A stretch of DNA of 64,000 nt from Candidatus Moraniibacteriota bacterium (GCA_041583775.1 JBFHFF010000002.1:128274-192273), one strand, 5' to 3'. Shown: positions 11,970 through 28,046, numbered from the stretch's first letter. Program-made: numbers and translations. The notes: generated from the sequence alone by a model not told the origin.

Positions 11970-12737
11970 ATGAATCTTTCTATAATTTTAGTAAATTATC
12001 GAAGCGAAAAATGGCTCAATAATTGCTTGTGTTTTTTAGAAGAACTCACCTCCTCAGATATTATTTTTGAGATTATTATTGTCAATAACGATGACAATAA
12101 ATTTGTTTTGACTAAAAAATATTCTTTTTCTCCGAAAATAATTCAAAACCAAAAAAATATTGGTTTTGGGAGAGCAAATAATTTAGGTGTACAAGTTGCT
12201 ACTGGAGAAAATATTCTATTTTTAAATCCAGATACTGTTTTTAAAAAAAAGCATCTGAAAGAACTTTTGCTTTTTTTTGAAACAAATCCCCAAATCGGTG
12301 TACTCAGCCCTAAAATAATTCAAGCTTCTCGACTACAAGCACAACCCTTTACTTGTGGTAAAAAAACATCTCTTTTAGGTATTATTTTCAGAAATACAAT
12401 TCTGAAGCCTTGGAATAAAAAAAGACCAGTACTTGTTGATTGGGTTTCTGGAACCGCACTATTAACAAGAAAACATCTCTTTGAAAAAGTTGGCGGTTTT
12501 GATGAAAATTTTTTTATGTACTTCGAGGACCAAGATTTATGTCTTAGAATTAAAAAACTTGGCTATGACATAGTCTTTTTTCCTAAAAGCAAGGTCCTAC
12601 ATTATGACGGAAAATGTTGGCCAAACACTAAACAACAAAAAATTGCTTTTTATAAAGCTCAAGATTATTTTTTCAAAAAACATCATCTTCCTTATAAATT
12701 AACTATATTAAGGGTGTTAAAAAAAATAGCTCTATGA
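11970..12737 (+). CDS. Glycosyltransferase family 2 (GT-A, rhamnosyl/glucosyl-transferase-like)
   Basis: LSIILVNYRS N-terminus, NPDTVF, and DQDLCLRIKKLGYDIVFFP (DXD-type GT2 signatures). Confidence 0.85.
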   Translation: MNLSIILVNYRSEKWLNNCLCFLEELTSSDIIFEIIIVNNDDNKFVLTKKYSFSPKIIQNQKNIGFGRANNLGVQVATGENILFLNPDTVFKKKHLKELLLFFETNPQIGVLSPKIIQASRLQAQPFTCGKKTSLLGIIFRNTILKPWNKKRPVLVDWVSGTALLTRKHLFEKVGGFDENFFMYFEDQDLCLRIKKLGYDIVFFPKSKVLHYDGKCWPNTKQQKIAFYKAQDYFFKKHHLPYKLTILRVLKKIAL

Positions 12738-13996
12738 AATTATTAAATTGGAAAAATTTATTCCTCTTTTCATTGGCAATTCTACCTTTTAGTTTTGCAT
12801 TAAACCCAACCTCCAATATTGACATGCCCTTTATTAGAGCTCTTTTTCCTTTAGTTTTTTTGTTTTGGTTTTTTTGCTCTCTTTTTGAAAAAAAAATTAT
12901 TTTAGACAAAAGACCTCGCTTTTTAATACTTTTAATATTTTTATTTATTTGCTCAATTTCCTTTTTTTGGGCAAATGATAAATCTGCCGCATTAACAAAA
13001 ATTCTTTTCCTTTTATCCTTCCTCCCTGTATATTTTTTAAGCTACGCCATTACTAAACAGAAAAAAATGCGCTTAACAGTGTTAAAAGTTTTTGTTTTCA
13101 GCTCTTTTGTTGCTGCTTTTTTTGCTCTATTTATTTTTTCTTTGCAATTTATTTTTGGAATTGATACTGCAATTTTATTCGCAACAAAAACAACTCCTTT
13201 CTTTTTAGGAAAAAACTTTTCTGGTATGGTTTTGGCTTATCCAAGCTGGCTTGTAAATATTAACGGGAAAACAATAATGCGAACTTTTGGATCATTTCCA
13301 GACCCCCATCTTTTTTCACTTTTTATTAACTTGTCATTACCTTTTTCTTTTTATTTATGGAAAAAAACCTCTTTAAAGATTTATCTTTTTTTAGGTTCTG
13401 TATGTTTAATTGCAAGCTTACTTAGTTTTTCAAGAGCTTCATATCTAGCTATTTTTCTTGGATTATTTTTCTCCATCCTACTCTTTTCAAATTTTCACAA
13501 TAACCTCTTTTTTATAAAAAAACATTTTTCCAAATTCCTTGGAATTGCTTTTTTTATTTTCCTTTTTTTACTTATTCCGAACCCATTAACTCAAAGATTT
13601 GCCTCTTCTTTTAATTTAAACGAGGGGTCTAATTCTGGTAGATTGGATATGTGGCGGTTAGCAATCTCAAATACACTTGAAAAACCACTTACTGGTGTTG
13701 GTATTGGAAATTTTGCCAAATATAATTTCCCGATGTCAACCAGCAATGACCCCATTTATGCACACAATTTGTTTTTAGATTTCAGTTCAGAAATTGGTTT
13801 TATTGGGGCACTTTTTTTAATTATATTATTCCTATCCCCTTTTATTGCTCTAAACAAAAAAGCATCTTCTTTGAACAAGACAATTGCGCTTGCAATATTT
13901 ATCTTCGCAATCCATTCATTGTTTGAGACACCTTTTTATTCTATTAGGGTTTTCCCTTTATTTTTTTTAATTTTAGCAATTGATGACAATGCTTAG
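12734..13996 (+). CDS. O-antigen ligase/Wzy_C-domain polytopic membrane protein
   Basis: At least 10 predicted TM helices with a periplasmic-loop motif region (SFSRASYLAIFLG...RLDMWRLAI). ATGA overlap with the upstream GT2. Confidence 0.6.
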   Translation: MKLLNWKNLFLFSLAILPFSFALNPTSNIDMPFIRALFPLVFLFWFFCSLFEKKIILDKRPRFLILLIFLFICSISFFWANDKSAALTKILFLLSFLPVYFLSYAITKQKKMRLTVLKVFVFSSFVAAFFALFIFSLQFIFGIDTAILFATKTTPFFLGKNFSGMVLAYPSWLVNINGKTIMRTFGSFPDPHLFSLFINLSLPFSFYLWKKTSLKIYLFLGSVCLIASLLSFSRASYLAIFLGLFFSILLFSNFHNNLFFIKKHFSKFLGIAFFIFLFLLIPNPLTQRFASSFNLNEGSNSGRLDMWRLAISNTLEKPLTGVGIGNFAKYNFPMSTSNDPIYAHNLFLDFSSEIGFIGALFLIILFLSPFIALNKKASSLNKTIALAIFIFAIHSLFETPFYSIRVFPLFFLILAIDDNA

Positions 13997-15161
13997 TTTC
14001 TTAAATTATCTAACAATTGCCCTTCTACCTGTTTATTTAATAAAAATACCCTTTGCAATAGGAGGTAGTTTAAATTTATTAGATATATTTTTAATTACCT
14101 CTATTACTTGCAATCTTTTTTTCATAATCAAAGAAGGTTACTTTATAAAATTTACAAAATTAAACACTTACATCAAAGTAGCTCTTTTTCTTTTTATTTT
14201 TGGATACCTCTTTTCACTTCTTGTAAATTATAATAAAGCTTCCTTTTTAGATAGCGCGGGGATGTTTAAAAGTTTCATTCTTCTCCCCATTCTATTCTCA
14301 TTAACTGTTTCTTTTTTGGTTTTTAAAAAAAAGCTTCTTATTAAATACCTCTTATTCTCTTTTGTCTTTATGACAACTATTTTATCTATTATTGGTTTTA
14401 TTTATTTTTTTCTTGATATACTGACATTTGATAACCGCTTAGAAATATTTTTTAATTCTCCTAATGCGCTAGCAATGCTTTTGGGACCCGGCATTTTAAT
14501 TCTTATCTTTTTTTTAAATAAGTTTAATGGCCGTTTTTATGCCTTTTTTCTGATTTTACTTTTTTTCCACAGCTTTTCCACAATAGCGACTTCTTCCTTT
14601 GGTTGCTTACTTTCTTTGTTTATTTTACTTATCATTTTTTTATTTATTAAATTAGTTAAAATTGATATTACAAAAATATACCTTATTTTTATAATATCAC
14701 TACTATCACTTTCCATTTTTCTGCTTTTTCTTTTGCCTATAACTAAATTTTTGCCATATAGTCAAAATATTCCTCCCTCTTTTTATTCAAGAATTGTTAT
14801 TTATGATGTAACAAGACAAATACTCTTAAAAGAATCTTTTGATGGTGTCGGTCTTGGAAATTTTCAGAAACATTACCTTTTACAACAAATTTACAACATT
14901 CCTTATCCTCAATGGGCTGTCCCTCACCCACACAACAACTTTCTTTTAGTACTTGTTGAGGGCGGCTTCCTAGCCTTTCTGGGCTATATTATGCTCATCT
15001 TCAAGAGGCCCTTATTTAAAAAAACGCCTTTCGGCATCTTAACTGTTTTTCTTTTCTTTTATTTTATAATTCATGGTATCGTAGATACAACAATCTGGAA
15101 AAACGATCTCGCTGTTATTTTTTGGCTATTCTTTGGTCTTTTGAATTTTTATCGACAATAA
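13980..15161 (+). CDS. Second O-antigen ligase/polymerase-like polytopic membrane protein, a tandem paralog
   Basis: Multi-TM protein with a similar C-terminal motif (GVGLGNFQKHY...HPHNNFL). Overlaps the upstream gene by 17 nt. Confidence 0.5.
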   Translation: MMTMLSFLNYLTIALLPVYLIKIPFAIGGSLNLLDIFLITSITCNLFFIIKEGYFIKFTKLNTYIKVALFLFIFGYLFSLLVNYNKASFLDSAGMFKSFILLPILFSLTVSFLVFKKKLLIKYLLFSFVFMTTILSIIGFIYFFLDILTFDNRLEIFFNSPNALAMLLGPGILILIFFLNKFNGRFYAFFLILLFFHSFSTIATSSFGCLLSLFILLIIFLFIKLVKIDITKIYLIFIISLLSLSIFLLFLLPITKFLPYSQNIPPSFYSRIVIYDVTRQILLKESFDGVGLGNFQKHYLLQQIYNIPYPQWAVPHPHNNFLLVLVEGGFLAFLGYIMLIFKRPLFKKTPFGILTVFLFFYFIIHGIVDTTIWKNDLAVIFWLFFGLLNFYRQ

Positions 15162-16331
15162 TTATTTCAATGTTATTGAATAAACGCTTTTCGTTTTTTT
15201 GTCTGTAAAAAAAAGATACTTCTCGTTTTCATCCAAGAATAAATTTACAGCATCCACTGCAACCATTTCGGCGCTCTCTAAAAGTCTTCGTTTTTTGCCA
15301 GACTCTACATCGATTTCCCAAAAAGTGTCTGTTGAGTTATATTTTCCTGAACTCCAGTCATTTGGTAATATTATTTCATTTTTAGCATACACCATCATAG
15401 CACAATAGATTTTTTTATTATCCTTAGCCCAAACACATTTATCAACAGAGGTAGGAAAATTCAAACTCTTCAACTCCCCTCCTTTCGCGTTCATTGAGCT
15501 TAGCATCATCCCGTTGCCTATTTGTTCGTTTACATAAGAAACTAGCAGTCTATTTCCGTTATTAGACCATAAATAATCAGCAGCAAAAACTCCCTTATGC
15601 ACACTTTCCACTTCCTTTGTTTTAATATTTATACAATCTAAACCAGCTTCAAAATTAGCATCTGGATATCTATGATAACAGATTTTGCCACCATTTTTTG
15701 GAATTTCAAAATCAATTTTTTCATATTGCAAATCATTTAGAACAATTTCTTCATTTTCTCCATTAAGATCTGCTATCGCAATTTTTCTACCAGTCTCATT
15801 TTCAAATGATTTATAAACAATTTTATCTTCCACTTCATTTTTATACCAAACTACATATTCAATTTTCTCGTCCAACTCACTTATCGTATTTTTATTTAAA
15901 TCATAAACAAAATACTTATTCTTGTCTTTTATCAACGCCTTATCCCTATTAAAATTCCATTGAATAGCTGAAACATCAATAAAAGGATACCCCCCAATAG
16001 AGTTCCTTGATTGTCCTTTGAAATCAATTAATAAAAAATTTCTATTTTGATAATATAATACTTGTGATGTAGTTAAATTCAAAACAGCACCCTTTACTGA
16101 TCCCTCTTCACCTGCTATTAATTTGTAAATTTTTCCATTTTCAGTTTCCTTTTCTTCCTCTATCTCACTCTCTTCTAATTCTTGGTTTTCTGTTTCCACA
16201 GAAAGCTCTGGTGCATTTTCTTTTTTGTTGTCAGTAAAAAATTTTTCATTTGAAGATATACTATGCAAAACAAAAGCTAGGGATGTTATGAGAAAAATAA
16301 TTGCAATAGCTATAAAAAAATTTTTTGACAT
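15162..16331 (-). CDS. Membrane-anchored extracytoplasmic protein, possibly beta-propeller/TolB-like
   Basis: N-terminal TM (FFIAIAIIFLITSLAFVL), an acidic linker, and repeated WxxDxxxxY-type strands. It is the last gene of the minus-strand operon. Confidence 0.45.
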   Translation of the reverse strand: MSKNFFIAIAIIFLITSLAFVLHSISSNEKFFTDNKKENAPELSVETENQELEESEIEEEKETENGKIYKLIAGEEGSVKGAVLNLTTSQVLYYQNRNFLLIDFKGQSRNSIGGYPFIDVSAIQWNFNRDKALIKDKNKYFVYDLNKNTISELDEKIEYVVWYKNEVEDKIVYKSFENETGRKIAIADLNGENEEIVLNDLQYEKIDFEIPKNGGKICYHRYPDANFEAGLDCINIKTKEVESVHKGVFAADYLWSNNGNRLLVSYVNEQIGNGMMLSSMNAKGGELKSLNFPTSVDKCVWAKDNKKIYCAMMVYAKNEIILPNDWSSGKYNSTDTFWEIDVESGKKRRLLESAEMVAVDAVNLFLDENEKYLFFTDKKTKSVYSITLK

Positions 16332-16371: not shown

Positions 16372-16800
16372 TTAATTACATCCCGCAGGATCAAGACATG
16401 ACCTAACTGATGGTATCGTTGTCATGACATCCCTTGTTAAATCTGGGTTAATAATGTTTAAAATCAACCAAGCCGTAAGTGCTATTCCCAGTCCAAAAAT
16501 AGCACTATATATTGTTTCTTTCGCGTCACTCATTGTAGATGCATTCCCAGCAGAAAATACAGTGTATTTAAAAGCACCAAATCCTATCATAAAAATTGCT
16601 AGTAAAGCAGAAATGCCTACACCAAAAGTATACAATGAATTTAAATAAGATAAGAAATCATTTGATCCTGTAGTCTCACCTGGTACAATTTCTCGTGTTG
16701 TATAGCTACCAGCAAAAACATTGTTTGTTACAAAAATACCATAAAAACTAATCATTGCTAAGATTCGAAATTTTTTTAATTTCATATTTTTTATTATCAT
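16372..16800 (-). CDS. VirB2/TrbC-like pilin candidate (signal peptide plus two hydrophobic helices)
   Basis: 142 aa. Signal peptide ends ...NNVFA, then two TM segments (LYTFGVGISALLAIFMIGFGAF and IYSAIFGLGIALTAWLILNII), the architecture of T4SS pilins. Lies in the same operon as VirB4 and VirB6-like genes. Confidence 0.45.
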   Translation of the reverse strand: MIIKNMKLKKFRILAMISFYGIFVTNNVFAGSYTTREIVPGETTGSNDFLSYLNSLYTFGVGISALLAIFMIGFGAFKYTVFSAGNASTMSDAKETIYSAIFGLGIALTAWLILNIINPDLTRDVMTTIPSVRSCLDPAGCN

Positions 16801-19637
16801 AGCTCTTTATTTAATTTAACAGCATAAGACAAACCAAACATTACACTCCAAACCAAAACCATTGCAATCGCCAACCGAATTATAAACAGCAAATAATGAG
16901 GGGCGTTGCTAATTGAAGAAGCGAGATATTGCTTAAGTGTAACATCCTGAGCTAAAGCCATATTAAAACCAACTTTCACTGAAATAGCAGTGTCTCTTGC
17001 TAATGTATTAGAATCAATAACACCCCAAGTGTCTTTTAGCATCTCAACATATTCATTCGCACCTCCCGAAGAAAAACTTTTCACGAGTCTAGCCTTAAGG
17101 TCTATTCCCGTTCCAATTGTCATATCTGCTGGAATTGTAAATGTAATTTGATCACCATTAAGAACTGTATTTAATCTCATAGTGTTGTTTCCTGTAACAA
17201 GAAAGTCATCGTCAACTTCTATATTATTTATATACCAAACCAAATCAACTTCATCATCATCTTGAACGGCATCAGTATTAATACTCATATACCTTGGAAC
17301 CACAGTTGCTCTGAAGCTAACAGTTGTGCCATTATCTGCTTCATATACAGTATCAGAAAGTGTTCCATCAAATCTTGTTGTGGCAACAGCATTGCCGTCA
17401 ACACTTTCAACCACAGCTCTAGGACCTGCAACTGTTAGAATTCTTTGAGAAACAAAATCTGCCGAACCCTCTGTTGCATTACTTCTTTTACTAGAAACAG
17501 AAATCGACATTATTGAATCTTCTCCAGCAGTAACAGGGAAAAACATTTCTTCTTCTGGGGCGGTTCCACAACCAACACCTCCAAAAATTCTACAATTCAC
17601 AACTGCGCCAATGCTATTGTCGTTTATTTTCCAGTTATACCTATCGAATGCTGGGGTTCCATCTGCAGTAACAGTTTCTGCAATCAAAACTTCATATGGA
17701 TATACTGGACAAATATCTTCATATAAACCAGTATCACAAATTGCTGGCCCCCTTCTCCATGTCCCACTAGCAGTGTCTCTTATTGCTTTATATAAATTCA
17801 TCCCCACAACATTTCTAATAACTGGAAAATAGATTCTTTCAACTGCACCCACAGTTCTACCATCCACATCAAGTGATGTTCCTCCAGCTAAAGATTCGTG
17901 CTCACTAACTATTACAGTTGCCCTTAGCCATACCTTGTTGTCAGTAGCGGCCAATGCTGGTAAACCAGAGAGTGCTCCAAAAATTGCACTTGTAGGAAAA
18001 AATTTCAATTCCCTAACACCCATCCCCTCAGTAAAACTTTCATATATTAAACTTGCATTGGGAACAATATGCTCACAATCGCTAAAATCATTACCATTAC
18101 AACGATCAATTTGCCATTGATAAAACAAATAATCTTCATTAACACCTTCATTGCTCAAACTAGCATTTATCTGAATAAGGTCAGATCTTTTATTTTCTAC
18201 ATTCATTTCCACAGCATCAAATTGAGGGTTTTCTGGTATAACGCTCAGTTCTGGATCAAGAATAGTTCCCCCTGACTCGTTCACAGGAATAGTTCCAAAA
18301 TAATTAAAACCCCAATCACTATTACCTGGCTCACACTTATCATCGCTCAATGGAGCTCCTGTAGAAAGTTGTAGTCTCATACTATTGTCATGAGTTGAAC
18401 AAATAGCTGGTGTTGCCCACATTATTTTATAATAAGCATTTAACTCCCCACTATCATCAGTTACTCCAGCGCCATATACTTCAATAATACTATTATCACA
18501 AGAATCATAGTTTGCCATACCATCATTAAATAAAGACATATCAGTGGAAATGGTGCTATCTCCTAGATTAAGATTGTCTGGTAAAAATGTTGAACAAAAA
18601 GCCGAAGCTTCACCGCTAGTAGCAAAAGTTTGTACGACTCCTGTAATGGGATTAGTAACATTATAACCAGTAAGTGTCGAAGTTTCTGTTTCTCCACCTT
18701 CAGAAATTGGAATCATTGAAGTTCCTTCGATAACAACACCAACTCTGTCTCCAGGTCTATAAATCCAAGTAAATTGGGTTTGATTTAAGCCAGCTAAATC
18801 GGCTTCATCCTCAACTCCATCTCCATCCGTATCAGCATTTGTTGGGTCCGTGCCCCAGCATTCCTCTTCTGCAACACCAAAATCACCATCTCCAACACGC
18901 CCAACTCCACAATTTCCAAATTCATGACTACATCTTACAATTTCATCTCTCCCAGCTCTTGCATCCTCTTCTGAATCCCCCATATTATCACTAGAAACTT
19001 GTTTTCCAAAATTATGATCATAACATCTCGTTATAGCACTATATCTTACTATTTGTTTGTCAGCATCGAACATTACTGCTGGATCATCATCATAAAAACC
19101 AACTCCGTTTCCTGTTTTAGCACCAACTCCATCAAGACCACCATAACTAGCATCAAAACCATCTTCATCTTCTAATGCGGCTGGTATAGCTGCATAATTT
19201 ATACCAAAAAGGTCTGCGTCAAAATTTCCTCTTGCTAAAATTCCCATCGCCTCTCGCTTTCCTGCTTCAATAGTGTTTAAGGCTCTCCCTTCATCATCCG
19301 AATGAACAATATACCAGGTATAATATAAATTAGATGTATCAGTTTTAAAACCTTTTGGAGCTGAGAGCGCTGTCACTTTTTCCCCCTCTTTTGGATTCGT
19401 TTTATTGAAACTAATCTCAACAGTTGGTACCATTTCTTTTTTTACCGATCTCCTTAAAGCATCTTTATCAAAACCATATCTATCCTCCATACATTCCGCC
19501 ATTCTCTCAAGGTTAACGGTTGCTCCTTTTGTAGCACTAACTTGACATTGAGCCTGAGCAAACACATAGTCTGTTTTTAATAAAAACAGTACCAGTGCTA
19601 AAAAGCAAATTCTTGCTATTTTTTTGTATTTTTTCAT
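16797..19637 (-). CDS. Large secreted, membrane-anchored surface protein (946 aa) with a thrombospondin type 3-like Ca-binding repeat, a Cys-rich region and a C-terminal TM anchor
   Basis: Signal peptide (LALVLFLLKTDYVFAQA), DTDGDGVEDEAD motif, many Cys and Gly/Asp-rich stretches, and a C-terminal hydrophobic helix (LLFIIRLAIAMVLVWSVMFGLSY). Confidence 0.7.
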   Translation of the reverse strand: MKKYKKIARICFLALVLFLLKTDYVFAQAQCQVSATKGATVNLERMAECMEDRYGFDKDALRRSVKKEMVPTVEISFNKTNPKEGEKVTALSAPKGFKTDTSNLYYTWYIVHSDDEGRALNTIEAGKREAMGILARGNFDADLFGINYAAIPAALEDEDGFDASYGGLDGVGAKTGNGVGFYDDDPAVMFDADKQIVRYSAITRCYDHNFGKQVSSDNMGDSEEDARAGRDEIVRCSHEFGNCGVGRVGDGDFGVAEEECWGTDPTNADTDGDGVEDEADLAGLNQTQFTWIYRPGDRVGVVIEGTSMIPISEGGETETSTLTGYNVTNPITGVVQTFATSGEASAFCSTFLPDNLNLGDSTISTDMSLFNDGMANYDSCDNSIIEVYGAGVTDDSGELNAYYKIMWATPAICSTHDNSMRLQLSTGAPLSDDKCEPGNSDWGFNYFGTIPVNESGGTILDPELSVIPENPQFDAVEMNVENKRSDLIQINASLSNEGVNEDYLFYQWQIDRCNGNDFSDCEHIVPNASLIYESFTEGMGVRELKFFPTSAIFGALSGLPALAATDNKVWLRATVIVSEHESLAGGTSLDVDGRTVGAVERIYFPVIRNVVGMNLYKAIRDTASGTWRRGPAICDTGLYEDICPVYPYEVLIAETVTADGTPAFDRYNWKINDNSIGAVVNCRIFGGVGCGTAPEEEMFFPVTAGEDSIMSISVSSKRSNATEGSADFVSQRILTVAGPRAVVESVDGNAVATTRFDGTLSDTVYEADNGTTVSFRATVVPRYMSINTDAVQDDDEVDLVWYINNIEVDDDFLVTGNNTMRLNTVLNGDQITFTIPADMTIGTGIDLKARLVKSFSSGGANEYVEMLKDTWGVIDSNTLARDTAISVKVGFNMALAQDVTLKQYLASSISNAPHYLLFIIRLAIAMVLVWSVMFGLSYAVKLNKEL

Positions 19638-19658
19638 AGTTTGTTTTTGTTTAGAACC

Positions 19659-20339
19659 CTAAGAAGTAAATTGTGAATAAAAATAAATATCTAATATTAA
19701 TAAATATATCCAATGGAATGCTGTTGAGACAAAAATAGATTTATTTTTATAAGCAATAAATCCAAATAAAATGTTGGGCATTAATATCAAAAGCATACTT
19801 TTTCCTGAAATCATTCCTGTAGTACCCAATTCATAAACTAAAAAAAGGAAGGCTTGGGTAATAATAGCATAAAAAATACTCATAACTGAAGTTAGTCCTT
19901 TCATTACAAATCCTCTGAAAAAAAACTCTTTTGCAAAAACCACAAAGGGAAGAATGAAAAGATCAACAAATAGCATTATTTTAACATCTTTTGCTATTAC
20001 CCAAGAAGAAACTCTTATATTTTCTTGCCAATTTAATTTTAGCACAAAAAGTACTATTACTGCAAAAAAAATAATTGTTATTCCTAACGAAGTCATTAAA
20101 TTTTTAAAATTTAAATTATTTTGTAAAAAATATTCCTTAGGATTTTCTTTGAAAATATTTTTAATAATAAAAAAAGGTGCTATAAACAGCAAAAATACTG
20201 TTGTAATCATCCATTCAAAAAATCCACCAGCCCTAACATCTTCAAGAAAAAAATTAGTCAAAAAAATAACCAAAATAAGATTCACCAAAATCACAAAGAT
20301 TATGTTTTTTTTATTTTTTATTTTTTGATTTTTTAACAT
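19659..20339 (-). CDS. CPBP-family (CAAX/Abi) intramembrane glutamic endopeptidase
   Basis: Polytopic membrane protein carrying motif 1 (EFFFRGF) and an FxxxH motif (AFHWIYL) of the CPBP family. Confidence 0.65.
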   Translation of the reverse strand: MLKNQKIKNKKNIIFVILVNLILVIFLTNFFLEDVRAGGFFEWMITTVFLLFIAPFFIIKNIFKENPKEYFLQNNLNFKNLMTSLGITIIFFAVIVLFVLKLNWQENIRVSSWVIAKDVKIMLFVDLFILPFVVFAKEFFFRGFVMKGLTSVMSIFYAIITQAFLFLVYELGTTGMISGKSMLLILMPNILFGFIAYKNKSIFVSTAFHWIYLLILDIYFYSQFTS

Positions 20340-20351
20340 TTTTTATTTTTA

Positions 20352-21011
20352 TTATTGTGCAGTTTTCGCTAACATTTCGAGCTCTCTGTACTTTTTTTTC
20401 GCTTTTTTTATTCTTTTTTTCAGAACATGATTTGCGTGCATAACACAAACAATATTTAACGGCAAAGCGCCAACAATTGGAATTATTTCTAAAAATAACA
20501 ACAAGGCTCTAAGTGTTTTAACTTTCCAGTTCCCATATCCCCAAAGCATTATAAAAAGCAATGGAGAAAAAATAAAGCTAAATATAAAAGCTGCTATTGG
20601 AATTATATCCATAAAATCAAGAAAGAATGCTAGTAAATAAGCTATTTGAATCGCAGAACTATCGCCTTCCATCATTCTTGCTCTTAATTTATTTCCTAAT
20701 CTTATAACTCTAGCTGGGAGCATTGCCTTTGGGCCTGTAGCTGCTTTGTATATTCCTCTTGCGGCCATTAATTTAGTACCTTCTTTTCTTTTTGCTGTTT
20801 GGTTATATTGTCCTGCATTTCCCTCTAATGGTCTATTTGTCTTGTAGTTTTCCAGCCTTGCTTGTTGAAGATTGTTATAATGACCAACCTCTTTTTCTTT
20901 GTCAATCCGTGAAGATTTTACATACTGAAAAGAAGATTCTTTGGGAGAATTTTTTTTAATTCCATTTAATATTTGCCTTACTCTTTTTTCATTTTCCCCA
21001 GACATACCCAA
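20352..21011 (-). CDS. Hypothetical protein with a basic N-terminal region and C-terminal 2-3 TM helices; T4SS-associated, unknown function
   Basis: ORF with a C-terminal hydrophobic block (IQIAYLLAFFLDFMDIIPIAAFIFSFIFSPLLFIMLW...). Located just downstream of virB4. Confidence 0.5.
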   Translation of the reverse strand: MGMSGENEKRVRQILNGIKKNSPKESSFQYVKSSRIDKEKEVGHYNNLQQARLENYKTNRPLEGNAGQYNQTAKRKEGTKLMAARGIYKAATGPKAMLPARVIRLGNKLRARMMEGDSSAIQIAYLLAFFLDFMDIIPIAAFIFSFIFSPLLFIMLWGYGNWKVKTLRALLLFLEIIPIVGALPLNIVCVMHANHVLKKRIKKAKKKYRELEMLAKTAQ

Positions 21012-21043: not shown

Positions 21044-22912
21044 TTATGCTTCGTTTTCTTCTTCTTTTTCTTTCTCAAGTTCAATTCGTTGTGCGGGATT
21101 TGTAGTAATTAGTTTATCTTCGTCATATGACGCCACTACTTGGATAGCAGCTCTTTTTAAACCAGCAAAGAAAATTCCCTCCCCAACTCCGCAATCCATT
21201 AAAAGATATTTTTCTCTATCAGTTAGATAAAAGGTGTCAGCAATGACATCAATAGCTGATTGTGATTGTTTCATTAACACTTGGATAGAGGAGTTTGAGA
21301 CAATAGGTTTCCCATATTTAGATGACATAAAATCAGAAATGTCCTGCGTAATAGTAGTTAATCCTCCATAATATTTTCTAATTCTTTTTGCGACCATAAA
21401 TAAAAATCTTGCAGCTTCTTCATGCTCCATCATTCTCCAAGCCTCATCAACAACAATTAATCTTTTTTTAACATTAATTCTAACTTCTTTCCAAATATAG
21501 TTTAAAATCATATACATCGCCATTGGACGCAATTCATCTTCTAGGTCTCTAATATTAAAAACTACCAATTGATTATCGAGAGAAATATTTGTTCTGTTAT
21601 TCAAAAAACCTGAAAAAATTCCTTTTGTATATTTCTCTAATCTAATAGTAATATCCTCCACACCTTTCATATTTGACAACACTTCATATAAATCAAGCAG
21701 TACTGGCATAGCTCTATCTTTCAAATCGTCCAATGGAGTGTCTTCTGTTATATCTCTAACTGCATATGTTTCTCTAATTGCTTGTTCTAGAATTGATTCT
21801 TCTTCTGGCGTTAAAGTCCCTAACATCAATTTTAAAAGCCCTAACATTGATGATATTGTGCTTCTTATAATATCTTCTACTTCAACACCCTCCTCTATTG
21901 ATAAATCAAAGGGGTTAATGTGATTTTTTGTGTTTAAAGAAATTCTCAAATAAGAGCCTCCTACTGTTTCTGCTAGATATTTATATTCATCTTCTGGATC
22001 AATAATAATAGCACTTGCGCCCATCATTAAAGATCTTAAAATTTCCAATTTAACAGTATAACTTTTTCCAGCACCTGATTTAGCAAAGACCACCATATTC
22101 GCATTTTCCATAGAAAAACGATCGAATAATATAAGGGAATTGTTGTGCCTGTTAATTCCGTATAAAATTCCTTGGTTAGAGGTTACATCCGCAGAAACAA
22201 AAGGGAAGGTTGTTGAAAGTGGTGATGTGTTTAGTGCATTACCATTAATCAATCTGTCAATTCCAAGAGGAATTGTAGAAACAAAACCTTCTTTCATTCT
22301 AAAAATAGATCTTTTTGTATATACTGACCGAGCATTCAGCAGAGATTCTAACATAATTGTGTTTTTGTCTAGAGCATCCTTGGTCTCTCCAAATACATTA
22401 AAATAAAGCCCGAACTTAAAAAAACGCTCTGCACCTTCCTGGAGTTGATCTCTTAAGGTTTCAACATTACTGTATGCCATTTCTAAAATTGGATCTCTTG
22501 TTAAACCCTTTTCTGATTCAATATTCATCTCTGATTGAATTTGTGTGACTTTTTTTCTTAGTTTTTTTAAAATAGTTCCAGTATCAACAGGATAAATAAA
22601 CATTGATATATCCAGTGGAAGATCAATTCCAATTATTGGATTCATCCAGCCCATTGCAAGTGCTCTTGGATATGCAGCAACAAAAAGAGTTCTGCAAAAA
22701 GTATCTCCTATCTGCAAATTTGAACTAGAGACTCCAAAAGCAGATGGTGAAATTAAATCTATAACCCTAGCCAATCCCTCTTGATAAAGCCTTTCTTTAT
22801 TTAATAAATCAGAAGAAGCTTCTTCGTGAATTTCTGGTTGCTTCAAAGTAGTGGTCTTCCCAGAAATTGTTTTATTTTCTTTTATTCTTCCGAATTTAGG
22901 TAGTTCTATCAT
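21044..22912 (-). CDS. virB4: VirB4/TrbE/CagE-family type IV secretion ATPase
   Basis: Walker A (VVFAKSGAGKSYTVK), Walker B (RLIVVDEAWRMM), and the conserved N-terminal VirB4 region (ILYGINRHNN..., FDRFSMENANMVV). Confidence 0.85.
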   Translation of the reverse strand: MIELPKFGRIKENKTISGKTTTLKQPEIHEEASSDLLNKERLYQEGLARVIDLISPSAFGVSSSNLQIGDTFCRTLFVAAYPRALAMGWMNPIIGIDLPLDISMFIYPVDTGTILKKLRKKVTQIQSEMNIESEKGLTRDPILEMAYSNVETLRDQLQEGAERFFKFGLYFNVFGETKDALDKNTIMLESLLNARSVYTKRSIFRMKEGFVSTIPLGIDRLINGNALNTSPLSTTFPFVSADVTSNQGILYGINRHNNSLILFDRFSMENANMVVFAKSGAGKSYTVKLEILRSLMMGASAIIIDPEDEYKYLAETVGGSYLRISLNTKNHINPFDLSIEEGVEVEDIIRSTISSMLGLLKLMLGTLTPEEESILEQAIRETYAVRDITEDTPLDDLKDRAMPVLLDLYEVLSNMKGVEDITIRLEKYTKGIFSGFLNNRTNISLDNQLVVFNIRDLEDELRPMAMYMILNYIWKEVRINVKKRLIVVDEAWRMMEHEEAARFLFMVAKRIRKYYGGLTTITQDISDFMSSKYGKPIVSNSSIQVLMKQSQSAIDVIADTFYLTDREKYLLMDCGVGEGIFFAGLKRAAIQVVASYDEDKLITTNPAQRIELEKEKEEENEA

Positions 22913-22921
22913 ATTTTTAAA

Positions 22922-23608
22922 TTATTCTCTTTCAAGGTTTAAATCTTCTAGTGTTGGTATTGCTACATGTTCAAACTCTGAAGGGTTATAGCAGTTATAA
23001 TACATTTCTATCAACTCTTGTGTGTTTAATGGCACAATTCTAATCCCACTACCGGAGAGTGATTCTTTAACTTCTTCAACTCTTTGAAAAAGTTGATTTT
23101 TATATGTTTCAAATTGCTCTCTTTCTTGATAAATATTTTTTCGAGGTGTTAGTTTTGCCAACATTTTATCAAGAAATCCTGTTTTTTTAGATTCTACAGC
23201 GTAAAAAGGAACTACTATATAGAACAATTTTGACATAATGTTAGAAACATTAACTAATTCTCCAATAAAGTTTAGATAATCTTCTATCTGATTTCTAAGC
23301 AAAGCATTTCTTTCTGTGTCTTTTTTTCTTTCAAGCATCTCTAAATATGGTTTGATATCAAATTTTCTAGTAGAAATAACTATTTGTATTGGAAAATCTA
23401 ATGAATTTAAAAACCTTTGGTATGCAAAAATAATAGCCTCCTGTTCTGTGCTAGATTTTAAATCAAAATTTATTGAAGAAACAGCTAAAACCGCTCTTAA
23501 GGAGCCATCTTTAACAACAACTGTCCCGTCTTTAATTTCGGAAACATTTAATTCTTCTTGCATACTAGAACCCACCATTCCTGCCATAAAACTAAAATTA
23601 ATAATCAA
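22922..23608 (-). CDS. Hypothetical T4SS-associated protein (228 aa)
   Basis: ORF translationally coupled to the PrgI-like gene upstream and virB4 downstream. No recognisable motif. Confidence 0.5.
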   Translation of the reverse strand: MIINFSFMAGMVGSSMQEELNVSEIKDGTVVVKDGSLRAVLAVSSINFDLKSSTEQEAIIFAYQRFLNSLDFPIQIVISTRKFDIKPYLEMLERKKDTERNALLRNQIEDYLNFIGELVNVSNIMSKLFYIVVPFYAVESKKTGFLDKMLAKLTPRKNIYQEREQFETYKNQLFQRVEEVKESLSGSGIRIVPLNTQELIEMYYNCYNPSEFEHVAIPTLEDLNLERE

Positions 23609-24018
23609 ATTTTACTATTCTTGTCTAATAAATCAGCTAAGTTACTTGAGTTTTTCAATTCCTTTTCTTTAACAAATCTATTAATTGAAGCTTTTTCATC
23701 CTCCTTTATTCTCTTTACTGGCTCTCTCGTTTCATTTCTTATATTTCTATGCCAAGTTAAAACCTTCGGTTTAAATAAATAAGAAATCCCATTTAAAACA
23801 AATTGGAGAAAGGTCATTCCCGCTGGTTTATAAAAAGCAAAAGCCAAGGACAAAAGTACAACTGGTGCACCTATTAGCACTAAAGCCGCTATTGAATCTG
23901 TTTGCCACAAAAAAAACAGTCCTGTGGCTCCTAGGGCCAACCAACCCAATTGTTTTATTGTTAGTTGAAAAGCTAACTTGTCTTCAACTTCGATATATTG
24001 TGGAACATTGAAATTCAT
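23605..24018 (-). CDS. PrgI/VirB3-like small membrane protein
   Basis: 137 aa with two adjacent TM helices after a short N-terminus (LGWLALGATGLFFLWQ... LVLIGAPVVLLSLAFAFY), in the usual position immediately upstream of the VirB4 region. Matches the PrgI family of Gram-positive conjugation systems. Confidence 0.55.
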   Translation of the reverse strand: MNFNVPQYIEVEDKLAFQLTIKQLGWLALGATGLFFLWQTDSIAALVLIGAPVVLLSLAFAFYKPAGMTFLQFVLNGISYLFKPKVLTWHRNIRNETREPVKRIKEDEKASINRFVKEKELKNSSNLADLLDKNSKI

Positions 24019-24030
24019 ATTTGCTTTTTA

Positions 24031-25020
24031 TTAAACATCCTTCAAGTTTATAAGGTGTTTTGATTGTATTTCACCCTCCTCTTCAGTGGTTTTTTGTTTT
24101 TCACTTTCCGTCTCTTTTAGTTTCCCCATCTCTTCTGTTTTTTCATCATAAACTTTCTTCTCTTGATCTTCTGTTGATGGAATTTCTTTTTCTTGCACTT
24201 CCCTAATTTCTCTCTCTATAAACTCTTCCGTTTCTTGTTGCTTTTTATTTTCCAAAGATTCTTTTAATTTCTCTGAAATTTCACCCGCTGTGTTATTGAA
24301 TAAAATTATTTTTCTATTGGCATCAATTTCAAGGTCACTATTCTCATCATAAGACTCCAAAATCATTAAAAGAGCTTTTTTTTCTAAAAAGGTTAGGTTG
24401 CTTACATTTTTTGAGTTAAAAATATAATCACTTCTCTCTAGATTGTTGTGTGCTTGAGAGCCTTTTTGTATAGTGTAATCATCTAGCCAATTCTCTATTG
24501 ATTGCTTTCTTGGTTCTATTTCTTCTGAAATTTTTATCTTGCTCTCCCCTAATAATTGCTTCCCTATTTCTGGAAATTTTTTTAGTGCTGAAATTAAAGG
24601 CATTCTTTCTATTTCAATATCCAAACCACTGTTTTCTATGTCGCTGATTTTTTTCCGAAGACTAAAAAGTTCAACAATGAGCTTTTCTGCTTCATTTTCA
24701 TCAATTCTTATTCTCTCGACAATTCTTTTTTTAATCTTTTCCTCATTAAAGACTCCTTCAACAAAAGAATCTCTAATAATTCTAGAAATTTCACCAACTT
24801 CAGAAATTTTATAAATATTAAACTTCTTTGCAATTCTGATAATATTCTCTTCTGTTTTTTCAACAACAAGTCCTAATCTAATTTGATAAGGCAATTTATT
24901 ATAAATTTCCAACCAACCTAAATCATCATTTTGTGTATCATCTTTTGGATCCCAATGAACACTAGCACTCATTGGACAAGCCTGCTTCCTTATTAATCTT
25001 TCGTTTTCTATTTCTTGCAT
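24031..25020 (-). CDS. Hypothetical acidic coiled-coil protein (329 aa), T4SS-associated
   Basis: ORF with an E/K-rich C-terminal half. No recognisable motif. Confidence 0.45.
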   Translation of the reverse strand: MQEIENERLIRKQACPMSASVHWDPKDDTQNDDLGWLEIYNKLPYQIRLGLVVEKTEENIIRIAKKFNIYKISEVGEISRIIRDSFVEGVFNEEKIKKRIVERIRIDENEAEKLIVELFSLRKKISDIENSGLDIEIERMPLISALKKFPEIGKQLLGESKIKISEEIEPRKQSIENWLDDYTIQKGSQAHNNLERSDYIFNSKNVSNLTFLEKKALLMILESYDENSDLEIDANRKIILFNNTAGEISEKLKESLENKKQQETEEFIEREIREVQEKEIPSTEDQEKKVYDEKTEEMGKLKETESEKQKTTEEEGEIQSKHLINLKDV

Positions 25021-25034
25021 TTTTATTTTTTATT

Positions 25035-27065
25035 TTATTCATTCATTCCTTTCATTGCTTTTCTTGCCTCATTATCTCCCAAATCTTCTTTGGTTATACC
25101 TGAAATAATTTCTTTTAATGCTTCTTGTTTCAACCCATCTGTTTTTTCAGCTGCATGCTTTCGAAGTTGTTCTTGACTAAATCTATCATCACCACTTGCT
25201 TGTTTTTCTTTTATATAAGTTTTAACATTATCATTTTTTAAGAAATCTACAGATTGATCGGTTATATCACTCAATTTCATTTTCCCTAAATTATCACTAT
25301 ATGTTTTTTCAATATATTCCTTTCTTGCTTTTTCTCTAAATCTATCCTCAGATTCTTTACTCATTGAAACTCCACCCAGTTTGGTATTTTCGTCTATAAC
25401 TTTTTTATCCAGTTCTTTGCTCATATTTCTGCTAATTTCATGTTCAATCATTTCTCCTCTATTTTTCTTTCTGGCGAGCTTTTCAAATTTATCCAAAGCC
25501 TCTGGGCTGTTTTTAAACAACTCATAAGCTCTAGCATAGCTATCGTCATCCTTTGTCATGCCTAATTTCCCATCTTCTGCTAACTTCATTGCTGCTGCTT
25601 TTTTTCTAGCAATTAATTGTGCTGTGGTGTTTGAACCCTTCCCACCAGCTAAATTTGCAAGAGAGTTTAAGGTGGTTGGATTTGCTTTTAACATTTTCTT
25701 TAAAGCATCTTCATTAGGAATACCATTTTCATCCCAGTTTTTTGTTTGTTCTTGTTGTAATTTCTGTTGGTGAGCAAGTTTAGCAGACTTACTTCCAATT
25801 TGGGCTCTCTTGGAAAGCATTCTGGCTTCGTTGTTTTCTTTGTACCAAGTTTTTGTGTTATCAACAGCAGCTTTACCATATCCCAAACCATATCCCAAAG
25901 TTCCTGCATAGACAGCTCCTTTAGCTAATTTACCTGCCTTTCCCAATCCCCAAGCAGCACCATCACCTGCTTGACTTGCGATTTTTTTAGAAAGATCAAA
26001 ACCATAAAATAACATATAAATACAAGCACTGAATGGGACTAATATTCTAAGAGCGCCTATGACTAAGTTTTCTGATTGAGTTCCTGCCATCTGAACTCCA
26101 CCCCCACTAGCTGTAACATTAATACTAACAGCACTAACCAAAACAAGTGCTAGCCAAAGAAAAAATAACATTACCGGACCAAAAGCACACCAATATGTCA
26201 ATTTACTGAACCAGGTGGTTTTTATACTTCCAATGGCCGTTCCTGGGAGTGCTAATGCAAAAAAAGCTAAAGGGGAAAGGATTATTAAAACCCAAAGAGC
26301 TATAAGTCTAAGAATAAGAGACATTCCAAGAGCTAATAGCATAATTCCCATAATAAATTTAAAAATTGCCTCAATTATCATGCTAATATATAGTGCTACA
26401 TTGGAGCCACCTGTTTCACTTTTAAAAGAGGCTCCCATTCCCACTGAATTTAGAAGCGCGGCTGAATAACTAGCTGATCCTTCTTTTATATTGCTTAGAA
26501 AAAATGACATTGCTAAGTTTGAAATATCAATAAAAAAAAGTGTAATTGGTTTTGAAAAATTGACAAACAAAGCAGCTGAAACAACATAGATAATAAATTT
26601 TTTGTCTGAATATTTATTAATTCTCAAAATGGTAGCGATTGCTACAAAAATCAAAATTAAGATGAAAAATATATTCACAAAATCCCTCACTAATCCCCAG
26701 CCAGTGTTAATTGCTGTGAGCGCATTGCCAGAGAAAAAAACTTCTTCATATAACTGATCTGTCATTGTCATATCAACAACACTCATCCCCACACCCAAGA
26801 TGAAACCACTAAATGCTTGCAATAATTGCAAGCATCCCACAATCATATTGTCCATTATTTTAGAGGGCGTAGGAAGACCAAGAAAACCGCCATTTTTCCC
26901 GTCTATTTCTCCAGCATCTGCCAAATCTGCGGCCCCTGTATCACCAATCATTCGCCAGCCCTCTGCTGCATTTGTTTGATTTATATTTATAATAAAAAAG
27001 GAAAAAATTATTACTATTGGCAATATCGCTTTGAGCCATTTTTTTTTGTTTTTGAAAGATATCAT
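25035..27065 (-). CDS. VirB6/TrbL-like polytopic inner-membrane channel protein with a long hydrophilic C-terminal tail
   Basis: Signal peptide, an extracytoplasmic segment, then 6-8 TM helices and a ~250-aa charged C-terminal domain. Size and topology match TrbL/VirB6. Confidence 0.55.
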   Translation of the reverse strand: MISFKNKKKWLKAILPIVIIFSFFIININQTNAAEGWRMIGDTGAADLADAGEIDGKNGGFLGLPTPSKIMDNMIVGCLQLLQAFSGFILGVGMSVVDMTMTDQLYEEVFFSGNALTAINTGWGLVRDFVNIFFILILIFVAIATILRINKYSDKKFIIYVVSAALFVNFSKPITLFFIDISNLAMSFFLSNIKEGSASYSAALLNSVGMGASFKSETGGSNVALYISMIIEAIFKFIMGIMLLALGMSLILRLIALWVLIILSPLAFFALALPGTAIGSIKTTWFSKLTYWCAFGPVMLFFLWLALVLVSAVSINVTASGGGVQMAGTQSENLVIGALRILVPFSACIYMLFYGFDLSKKIASQAGDGAAWGLGKAGKLAKGAVYAGTLGYGLGYGKAAVDNTKTWYKENNEARMLSKRAQIGSKSAKLAHQQKLQQEQTKNWDENGIPNEDALKKMLKANPTTLNSLANLAGGKGSNTTAQLIARKKAAAMKLAEDGKLGMTKDDDSYARAYELFKNSPEALDKFEKLARKKNRGEMIEHEISRNMSKELDKKVIDENTKLGGVSMSKESEDRFREKARKEYIEKTYSDNLGKMKLSDITDQSVDFLKNDNVKTYIKEKQASGDDRFSQEQLRKHAAEKTDGLKQEALKEIISGITKEDLGDNEARKAMKGMNE

Positions 27066-27076
27066 TTTTTTGCTGT

Positions 27077-27988
27077 TTAAATTGTAAGACCTTTTTTAAT
27101 TCTATCTTGAAGAACATTTATACCGTCTGTTCCAATAGTTCTTTCTATTCTTCGAACTTCATTATTGATTGGTTTTGCCACAACATTGATTCCACTTTTA
27201 ACAAAAGATGTGACCGAAGAAACCACAAAACTTGCAATGACTTCTTCCAATGAACCAGCATTATTAATCATCTCAATTGGCATTGTTTCAGCAGCAGCGA
27301 CAATTTCTTGGGAAATTTTTCCTGGGATAACTTTATTTCCTTCCGTGATAGTGTTAAACCCACCACCCGCAATGGCTTCTGCTTCTTGGGCTTGAGCTTT
27401 TTGCATTGCCTCATTATCTATAACTTCCATGGCATTAACATAAGCATTTGTTGAGTTATTATAGTCCCCAAATTGATAAGAAAGAAAAGCTCCTACGCCT
27501 CCTCCCCTTGTTTGATCAAAAACATCACCAATTGGATCATCTGAATCAACTAATTCATGTAATGTTGCTTCTGGTTGCCCAGGAGAAAGTTGACTACTAA
27601 TTGTTTGTTCAACATTTCTTAACATATCCCTTTCTGAAGTAGAAACACCTTCTTGTATAACTGAAAAGAAATCTTCTAATTTGTTCTCAGCAGCTACTTG
27701 TGCTGCTCCAAAAATAAAATCTTCATAACTAGAAATAACCATAGATTCTCCAGATGAACCTGAGACAGCCTTTTCAATACTTTCTTTAATCATATTATTC
27801 GCCTCTTTTTTAAGAGTCTGAAGAACTGTCTTTCTGGTAATCTCAAAAACCTGTTGCATTGCTTGTTGCATAAGACCAGATGCAATATTTGTTCCCCACA
27901 TTTCAGCACAAACTGTTGTTGGCATGATTGTAACAAAAAGAAAGGCCGCTATAGTTATCGTTGCTGTTATTTTTTTTATTTTTATCAT
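27077..27988 (-). CDS. Secreted hypothetical protein (303 aa); possible VirB5-like minor pilus or adhesin subunit
   Basis: Signal peptide (ITIAAFLFVTIMPTTVCAEMW) and an Ala/Gln/Glu-rich, mostly helical composition. Confidence 0.4.
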   Translation of the reverse strand: MIKIKKITATITIAAFLFVTIMPTTVCAEMWGTNIASGLMQQAMQQVFEITRKTVLQTLKKEANNMIKESIEKAVSGSSGESMVISSYEDFIFGAAQVAAENKLEDFFSVIQEGVSTSERDMLRNVEQTISSQLSPGQPEATLHELVDSDDPIGDVFDQTRGGGVGAFLSYQFGDYNNSTNAYVNAMEVIDNEAMQKAQAQEAEAIAGGGFNTITEGNKVIPGKISQEIVAAAETMPIEMINNAGSLEEVIASFVVSSVTSFVKSGINVVAKPINNEVRRIERTIGTDGINVLQDRIKKGLTI

Positions 27989-28046
27989 TTTTGCTCCGTA
28001 TAAATATTATACCTTATATCTGAAATTTTTAATTTAAAATTGATTC

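Follow-up and report, generated by a model that had tools for sequence, protein, structure and literature searches.

The window analysed here is a stretch of 64,000 nucleotides from a Candidatus Moraniibacteriota bacterium (GCA_041583775.1 JBFHFF010000002.1:128274-192273). The present study concerns three genes on its minus strand, which lie inside a type IV secretion system (T4SS) operon and encode a polytopic membrane protein of the CPBP (CAAX/Abi-type) fold, a surface protein of 946 aa and a VirB2-like pilin. An earlier note on this DNA had described them as a unit, in which the CPBP protein could act as the maturation protease of the pilin or of an adhesin. The arrangement itself is borne out in full. 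The three open reading frames (ORFs) are found at 16372-16800, 16797-19637 and 19659-20339, as that note had placed them; they are conserved, co-directional and tightly packed inside the T4SS operon, and the genes of the pilin and of the 946-aa protein share the four nucleotides of an ATGA stop/start. The proposed role fared differently: the CPBP gene goes with the surface protein and not with the pilin, and its product is predicted to be a pseudoprotease. The features on which the argument turns are the following.

21044-22912, minus strand: VirB4-type ATPase of the CD1110 family, 622 aa, anchor gene of the T4SS operon
19659-20339, minus strand: CPBP/Rce1-fold polytopic membrane protein, 226 aa (PF02517)
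16797-19637, minus strand: surface protein, 946 aa, with a signal peptide and a C-terminal transmembrane (TM) helix
16797-16937, minus strand: C-terminal anchor of the surface protein, residues ~900-946, delimited on an alignment of ~40 orthologues
16372-16800, minus strand: VirB2-like T4SS pilin, 142 aa (PF18895)

A CPBP fold without its catalytic residues

The family assignment of the 226-aa protein is sound. It matches PF02517 (Rce1-like) over residues 126-212 with 38.6 bits against a gathering score of 22.4 (E 1.3e-9), and its AlphaFold2 (AF2) model, made of seven long helices and some short ones, has a pLDDT of 91.5 and a pTM of 0.89. In a fold search against the PDB, the only meaningful match of this model was MmRce1 (4CAD; TM-score 0.58-0.60, probability 1.0), with an alignment spanning ~230 columns. 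A phmmer search of the protein against PDB sequences gave no match, and a profile of 58 family sequences retrieved a single one, SpdC/LyrA (6U0O_A, E 6.3e-4, 22.8 bits, positions 6-206).

Rce1 and MrtX rely for catalysis on the first Glu of the motif E-E-xxx-R and on the His of F-xxx-H; a further His and an Asn are supplied by H-xxx-N (PMC11980579). The two strings quoted in the earlier note as protease motifs, EFFFRG (138-143) and FHWIYL (208-213), are indeed present, but the catalytic motifs are degenerate. They read K137-E138-FFF-R142-G, F166-LVY-E170 and H209-WIY-L213...D217, that is K-E-xxx-R for E-E-xxx-R, F-xxx-E for F-xxx-H and H-xxx-L for H-xxx-N, and the whole protein contains one His.

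The catalytic positions were counted in 40 distinct T4SS-linked orthologues from genomes and in six from metagenomes. The first position of motif 1 is never Glu in the genome set (0/40); one orthologue has Asp there and the others have Tyr, Lys, Phe, Gln and further residues. The motif-2 His is missing from all genome and metagenome orthologues (0/40 and 0/6, hence 0/46), its place being taken mostly by Leu. The motif-3 His is kept in 7/40, and the Asn position of the same motif holds a hydrophobic residue or Ser in every case (Asn in 0/40). The second Glu of motif 1 persists in 34/40 and D217, eight residues beyond the motif-3 His, in 37/40. A few orthologues have lost E138 and R142 as well, yet their genes still adjoin that of the 946-aa protein. 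An internal control came from a metagenome scan that used 14 CPBP sequences (at least 51 loci): with the same scan and model, the Glu, His and His set is kept in 43/43 of the non-T4SS CPBP relatives among the matches listed, and in 0/6 of the T4SS-linked proteins.

What is conserved across the T4SS-linked proteins is E138, R142, Q162, G193, S201, S205 and D217, all general scaffold residues of the CPBP family. An intact fold combined with conserved scaffold residues is the signature expected of a pseudoenzyme that has kept its binding site, and on these residue patterns the T4SS-linked CPBP protein is predicted to be a pseudoprotease.

Distribution of the CPBP gene

Close homologues of the CPBP protein are few, 11 proteins, all in the gene order of the window. 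This set does not constitute an independent test, because the flanking housekeeping genes are syntenic too. Look-ups of VirB4 from 82 down to 60% identity revealed loci in which VirB4 is accompanied by a small membrane protein, a protein of 223-268 aa in the CPBP position and a protein of 850-1000 aa; the pilin comes next in some of these loci only. A scan of GTDB species representatives added 80 loci, with VirB4 identities of 51-94%, and the loci, 92 in the full set, were annotated by iterated profile searches seeded with the window proteins. The close relatives of the window are metagenome-assembled genomes of Moraniibacteriota.

Co-occurrence was assessed in the 61 loci from the candidate phyla radiation (CPR) that extend at least 6 kb downstream of VirB4. 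The CPBP and 946-aa proteins are both present in 33 of them and both absent from 28, and no locus is discordant (0/61). The absences are real, since the CPBP-negative loci contain no polytopic ORF from VirB4 to the operon end. Of the 33 CPBP-positive loci, 20 have a pilin gene downstream and 13 have none, and such a gene is also found in 13 of the 28 CPBP-negative loci; conservation of the CPBP gene beside the pilin, which the proposal of a pilin protease had implied, is therefore not what the related loci display. In a subclade of ten loci, the operon ends with the CPBP gene followed by that of the 946-aa protein, and nothing pilin-like lies beyond. The CPBP gene thus tracks the 946-aa protein, while the pilin varies independently of it.

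Adjacency is equally strict. From the CPBP stop to the start of the 946-aa ORF, the distance is less than 50 nt in 38 of 39 loci, and mostly between -8 and +48 nt; five of these 39 spacings are longer apparent overlaps that result from over-extended ORF starts. The metagenome scan provided at least six further T4SS loci, with the 946-aa protein encoded directly downstream of the CPBP protein in 6/6. On a neighbour-joining tree of VirB4, the pair occurs throughout one large clade and its two genes are jointly missing from one nested subclade; pilin genes were lost independently several times, at least four.

In sister operons that lack the CPBP gene, the corresponding slot, which comes after the membrane protein adjacent to VirB4 and before the pilin, holds a secreted protein of 238-322 aa without a C-terminal TM helix. 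Examples in three numbered loci are:

L053, 12238-13068: secreted protein in the slot of the 946-aa protein
L056, 11971-12939: secreted protein in the same slot
L060, 12256-12972: secreted protein in the same slot

The lack of a C-terminal helix in the slot protein of CPBP-less operons fits a link between the CPBP protein and the helix of the 946-aa protein.

The surface protein and its anchor

Two hydrophobic segments are found in the 946-aa protein, a signal peptide at 7-29 and a C-terminal helix at 911-942. Its 115 homologues all belong to Patescibacteria and bear no assigned name, and the protein has no Pfam match at E<=0.1. Its earlier description as a Cys-rich protein with TSP3 repeats was overstated on both counts. 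A TSP3-like motif of the Ca-binding type, DTDGDGVED, occurs once, at residues 269-277, within the N-terminal head (~51-300), and the 17 Cys make up 1.8% of the residues. Three Cys pairs are invariant or nearly so among 55 homologues, and the last Cys of the protein is C690.

The AF2 model (pLDDT 78.9) consists of a string of beta-sandwich domains with helices at 900-911 and 914-945. Foldseek matched it to a Nitrosopumilus S-layer protein, to the MG domains of complement C3 and to protocadherins. The model thus suggests a generic immunoglobulin (Ig)-like array (Ig/cadherin/MG-like), typical of surface stalks or adhesins. Across the same 55 homologues, conservation is highest in the membrane-distal N-terminal head (51-150 and 251-300) and in the C-terminal anchor.

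This anchor has the consensus K-x-[YF]-L-A-[ST]-x5-P-x-Y-x2-F-x2-[RK]-L, followed by the hydrophobic helix and a short tail containing K/R. Within it, A906 and P913 never vary among the 55 homologues, and at least 90% of them have R921. No Cys is found in the C-terminal motif of any of the ~40 aligned orthologues. When searched against all proteins of the 92 loci and of the 64-kb window, a hidden Markov model of the anchor matched orthologues of the 946-aa protein only, so that any recognition of the anchor would be one-to-one. We propose that this conserved element serves as the docking site for the CPBP-fold protein.

The pilin

The 142-aa protein had been put forward as a pilin candidate with a signal peptide and two hydrophobic helices, and the assignment has gained from the domain search. 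The match to PF18895 (T4SS_pilin) scores 35.0 bits, where the gathering score is 26.6 (E 1.6e-8); the pilin-like NCBIfam model Mbov_0395 reaches 24.2 bits, under its cut-off of 40. The signal peptide ends in ...NNVFA|GSY, a standard -3/-1 site of the signal-peptidase-I type, and the hydrophobic helices at ~53-84 and 96-119 form a TM hairpin. Its Pfam match and its architecture identify the protein as a VirB2-like T4SS pilin. A profile of 15 pilin orthologues searched against PDB sequences gave only chance matches to TM hairpins (E>1).

The pilin of the window has a SAGNAS loop, an INPDL end and a C-terminal tail of 22 aa with a C-x5-C motif. Alignment of the 15 orthologues shows that the SAGN loop and the NPDL end are conserved and that the tail is not, relatives carrying extensions of 0 to >1000 aa. 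With such a variable C-terminus there is no conserved processing motif, and neither the alignment of the tails nor the relatives gave any sign of a dedicated C-terminal processing step.

In related CPR loci, pilin genes are often arrayed, and the extensions of PF18895 pilins include SLT lytic transglycosylase and Cys-rich modules (for example L012 17029-17952, L083 12244-15432 and L070 654-4256).

The operon and its surroundings

The minus strand of the window from ~15.1 to 29.2 kb forms a single string of tightly packed, co-directional genes. Besides the genes already listed, it contains:

28047-29177, minus strand: TSP3_bac-repeat protein, 376 aa (PF18884, E 1.4e-14)
within 24031-29177, minus strand: secreted protein, 303 aa (ORF calling)
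within 24031-29177, minus strand: polytopic protein in the VirB6 position, 676 aa (ORF calling)
within 24031-29177, minus strand: acidic protein, 329 aa (ORF calling)
23605-24018, minus strand: PrgI/VirB3-like protein, 137 aa (PF12666 PrgI, 39.6 bits against 27)
22922-23608, minus strand: TrsD/TraC-like protein with a VirB4 N-terminal domain, 228 aa (NCBIfam TrsD, E 1.4e-9, below cut-off)
20352-21011, minus strand: protein with two to three C-terminal TM segments, 219 aa, between the VirB4 and CPBP genes
15162-16331, minus strand: N-terminally anchored, beta-propeller-like protein at the operon end, 389 aa (faint beta-propeller Pfam matches only)

The order of the four upstream genes (TSP3_bac, 303-aa, 676-aa and 329-aa) recurs in loci L001-L013 and in many others. 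Orthologues of the 228-aa protein carry the TraC-like annotation PF26593. VirB4 exceeds the cut-off of the NCBIfam CD1110-family model, which is of the monoderm type (353 bits against 325), and also matches PF19044 and PF03135. At the downstream end, the genes of the 219-aa, CPBP, 946-aa, pilin and 389-aa proteins are separated by 12, 21, -4 and 40 nt. The 219-aa protein adjoins VirB4 in 66/92 loci, whether CPBP is present or not, and may be one of the small proteins specific to MPF-FATA systems; its N-terminal half is charged, and it has no Pfam or NCBIfam match. The 389-aa protein is kept in 43 loci, including some without the CPBP protein, the 946-aa protein and the pilin (such as L069 and L076), and looks like a core T4SS-associated component. 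No relaxase- or VirD4-like ORF was seen among the ORFs inspected between 10 and 40 kb of the window, in an inspection that included no search aimed at either.

Upstream of the operon lie dnaN (31215-32363) and dnaA (32645-34045), and the GC skew changes sign at ~35-36 kb of the window. By these landmarks, no more than ~5 kb separate the T4SS operon from the replication origin, a closeness already reported for some Patescibacteria. The operon is a Patescibacteria T4SS of the MPF-FATA-like, dnaA-proximal kind that is already known.

A scan of the operon region for promoters and terminators gave the same counts as shuffled sequence. The joint best sigma-70-like score of the region (10/12 matches) includes TTTGCA-16-TATAAT at 29278-29251 on the minus strand, between the UbiA gene and the first T4SS gene, and this is the only one of the joint-best sites with an extended -10 TG.

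The UbiA-family prenyltransferase gene (543 aa, 29281-30912, minus strand) stands directly upstream of the T4SS operon, a position kept in the syntenic loci examined. Its UbiA domain covers only residues ~301-513, behind a long polytopic N-terminal extension. Two tandem polytopic Wzy_C genes of the O-antigen-ligase-like type (12734-15161, plus strand) converge on the other end of the operon and are followed by a family-2 glycosyltransferase gene (11970-12737), an arrangement kept in many related loci. A prenyltransferase beside a gene of the CAAX-protease fold is curious, but UbiA and the Wzy genes also flank some loci without CPBP, such as L060 and L076.

A proposed partnership and its alternatives

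We favour, at about an even chance, the explanation that the CPBP-fold pseudoprotease works with the 946-aa surface protein through its anchor, and not with the pilin, and that it docks this protein at the T4SS. After export by the Sec pathway, the 946-aa protein would be held in the membrane by the conserved juxtamembrane motif near its C-terminus and by the TM helix. The CPBP-fold protein would then bind the anchor inside the membrane, as SpdC clamps the TM helix of SagB, and leave it uncut. The stalk of Ig-like domains would thereby be stabilised or positioned at the membrane complex of the T4SS, formed by VirB4, VirB3/PrgI, TrsD, the VirB6-position protein and the pilin. The pair is best read as a lineage-specific accessory module of the Moraniibacteriota-type T4SS, composed of a candidate adhesin and its membrane 'socket'. 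The fuller proposal, put forward tentatively and judged less likely than not, is that a dead homologue of CAAX proteases was recruited as an intramembrane socket, by which a large Ig-like adhesin or stalk is plugged into the T4SS that Moraniibacteriota-type CPR bacteria carry on the chromosome.

Several observations weigh against this explanation. The similarity to SpdC is weak, as its bit score tells. In the clade of the window, E138, R142, H209 and D217 are kept and the place of the motif-2 His is taken by a carboxylate, E170; residual or altered catalysis may persist there. With housekeeping flanks that are syntenic too, gene order alone is weak evidence within a close clade. Counted in evolutionary events, the signal of coupling comes down to about two, a gain and a joint loss, and the subclade of the apparent loss could represent a paralogous locus. 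In mirror-tree comparisons, the partial correlations do not single out the C-terminal anchor. Because the matches to Ig-like folds are of a generic sort, the surface protein is a putative adhesin.

The CPBP protein could alternatively be an intramembrane protease that is active in a non-canonical way. It would cut the surface protein at its anchor and so release or re-anchor it, one enzyme for one target, on the model of MrtJ/JDVT-CTERM and myxosortase/MYXO-CTERM. We regard this as unlikely; it is the form in which the earlier idea of adhesin maturation survives, and it needs a non-canonical catalytic mechanism. The gene of the presumed target is adjacent and co-occurs strictly with that of the CPBP protein, and the succession of motif, hydrophobic helix and short K/R tail resembles the tripartite design of sorting signals (bioRxiv 10.1101/2023.06.07.544157); a permanent anchor could have this architecture too. 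The residues conserved in and beside the TM helix are more in keeping with a packed helix that stays in place than with one that is discarded, and the C-terminal motif lacks an invariant Cys, unlike all four described CPBP sorting signals. On the enzyme side, the conservation of E138, R142, Q162, S201, S205 and D217, with H209 kept and E170 present in the clade of the window, would suit an active protein. The E,E,H,H,N set of Rce1 and MrtX (PMC11980579) is nevertheless not kept, the motif-2 His and the Asn being absent throughout and the motif-3 His rare, and some orthologues are without even E138 and R142. NCBIfam models of MrtS, Mrt_core and MrtJ do match, but weakly, with scores far under their cut-offs (31.7 against 130, 22.9 against 100 and 17.5 against 75, respectively). 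Membership of the MrtS, MrtJ and Mrt_core families is ruled out by these scores together with the motif without Cys and the missing catalytic set.

It is about as improbable that the CPBP protein has a role without binding to the anchor and that its coupling to the 946-aa protein is indirect. It could bind a polyprenyl or other lipid carrier, take part in lipid modification in the manner of LnsB, act as a generic membrane subunit of the T4SS or serve as an Abi-type immunity factor. Proteins of the CPBP fold with non-protease roles do exist: LnsB functions in the N-acylation of lipoproteins (PMC7387801), Abx1 and SpdC act with histidine kinases (PMC3578759, PMC5854430), and SpdC is proposed to bind the undecaprenyl carrier (bioRxiv 10.1101/2020.05.21.109470). 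The UbiA prenyltransferase and the two Wzy_C genes that flank the operon would agree with a lipid-related role, but they also stand beside some CPBP-less loci, as noted above. Two facts speak for a direct link: the CPBP gene adjoins that of the 946-aa protein strictly one-to-one, and sister T4SS operons without the 946-aa protein have no CPBP gene.

VirB2/TrbC-type pilins of Gram-negative systems need dedicated processing. That the CPBP protein provides it here, as a maturation protease acting by C-terminal trimming or cyclisation-type processing, is highly improbable and was rejected on distribution and active-site loss: the two genes do share an operon, two genes apart, and the pilin does have a short tail with two Cys, but CPBP and pilin occur without each other in many loci, the pilin tails are not conserved, the signal peptide has an ordinary cleavage site and the catalytic residues of the CPBP protein are lost.

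A large part of bacterial diversity belongs to the Patescibacteria, which depend on their T4SS for epibiotic growth in the cases tested. In one major lineage, the conserved Ig-like surface protein and its proposed membrane partner, encoded together in the operon, are a candidate device for contact between the T4SS and the host. If the partnership with the anchor is real, socket and adhesin would represent the missing contact device ('no adhesins detected', PMC12102498) of the secretion/uptake machine on which these epibionts depend. Our results also advise caution over the annotation 'CPBP family intramembrane metalloprotease' for genes of this sort, and over deducing processing from the fold alone.

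Comparison with known systems

The T4SS itself, the PF18895 pilin and the position near dnaA have already been described. In a survey published in 2025 (Microb Genom, PMC12102498), the T4SS of Patescibacteria were linked to conjugation machinery of the MPF-FATA type. They were described as having TrsD, PrgI/VirB3, VirB6 and VirB2-like pilins of the PF18895 type near virB4, and as lying often close to dnaA. The operon of the window resembles these systems in its monoderm-type VirB4, its TrsD, its PrgI/VirB3, the protein in VirB6 position and the PF18895 pilin, as well as in its chromosomal, dnaA-proximal location. It differs by the extra module of a CPBP protein and an Ig-like protein, restricted to a single clade. 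CAAX/CPBP proteins are mentioned nowhere in the survey, and the literature searched contained no CPBP/CAAX protein in conjugation or T4SS loci, in line with the earlier note's remark that such a protein is not a described T4SS component. Nor did this literature yield any description of a CPBP pseudoprotease paired with an Ig-like protein as a clade-specific T4SS accessory.

The CPBP protein of the window shares its overall fold and the PF02517 domain with the eukaryotic/archaeal Rce1 (MmRce1, 4CAD). Rce1 is an active glutamic endopeptidase with E140, H173, H227 and N231 as its catalytic residues. At the equivalent places the window protein carries K, E, H and L, and the majority of orthologues carry Y/Q/F, L, S and L/I/F/V.

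The pair also recalls MrtX/MYXO-CTERM, MrtJ/JDVT-CTERM and MrtS/Synerg-CTERM, in which a CPBP-family membrane protein is associated with surface proteins whose C-terminus runs from a motif through a TM helix to a basic tail. For JDVT, the genes of enzyme and target are even neighbours, one-to-one (bioRxiv 10.1101/2023.06.07.544157). In the myxosortase-type enzymes the set E,E,H,H,N is intact, and the sorting signals contain an invariant, probably lipidated Cys (PMC11980579; bioRxiv 10.1101/2023.06.07.544157). The window CPBP differs from them by its lost catalytic residues, by a target motif without Cys and by NCBIfam scores far under the cut-offs.

The pair may be likened either to a dedicated CPBP-target pair or to an SpdC-like scaffold. 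SpdC and the glucosaminidase SagB assemble into a 1:1 complex that needs the single TM helix of SagB and in which SpdC has a non-catalytic role; the authors of that work suggest that membrane proteins may be scaffolded by further bacterial homologues of CAAX proteases (bioRxiv 10.1101/2020.05.21.109470). The coupling in the window is a genetic one, and the partners differ. SagB is a small, N-terminally anchored glucosaminidase whose gene is not described, in the passages of the preprint consulted, as adjoining spdC; the candidate partner in the window is a C-terminally anchored Ig-like protein of 946 aa, encoded immediately downstream in a CPR T4SS operon. The CPBP protein of the window and Staphylococcus aureus SpdC (LyrA, PDB 6U0O) are both polytopic proteins of the CPBP/CAAX-protease fold and of similar size, and in both motif 1 is reduced to x-E-xxx-R (VEFGFR in SpdC, KEFFFR in the window). 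To the small set of non-proteolytic CPBP proteins represented by SpdC and Abx1, the T4SS-linked family would add a clear natural example of a dead CPBP protein, with its own internal control.

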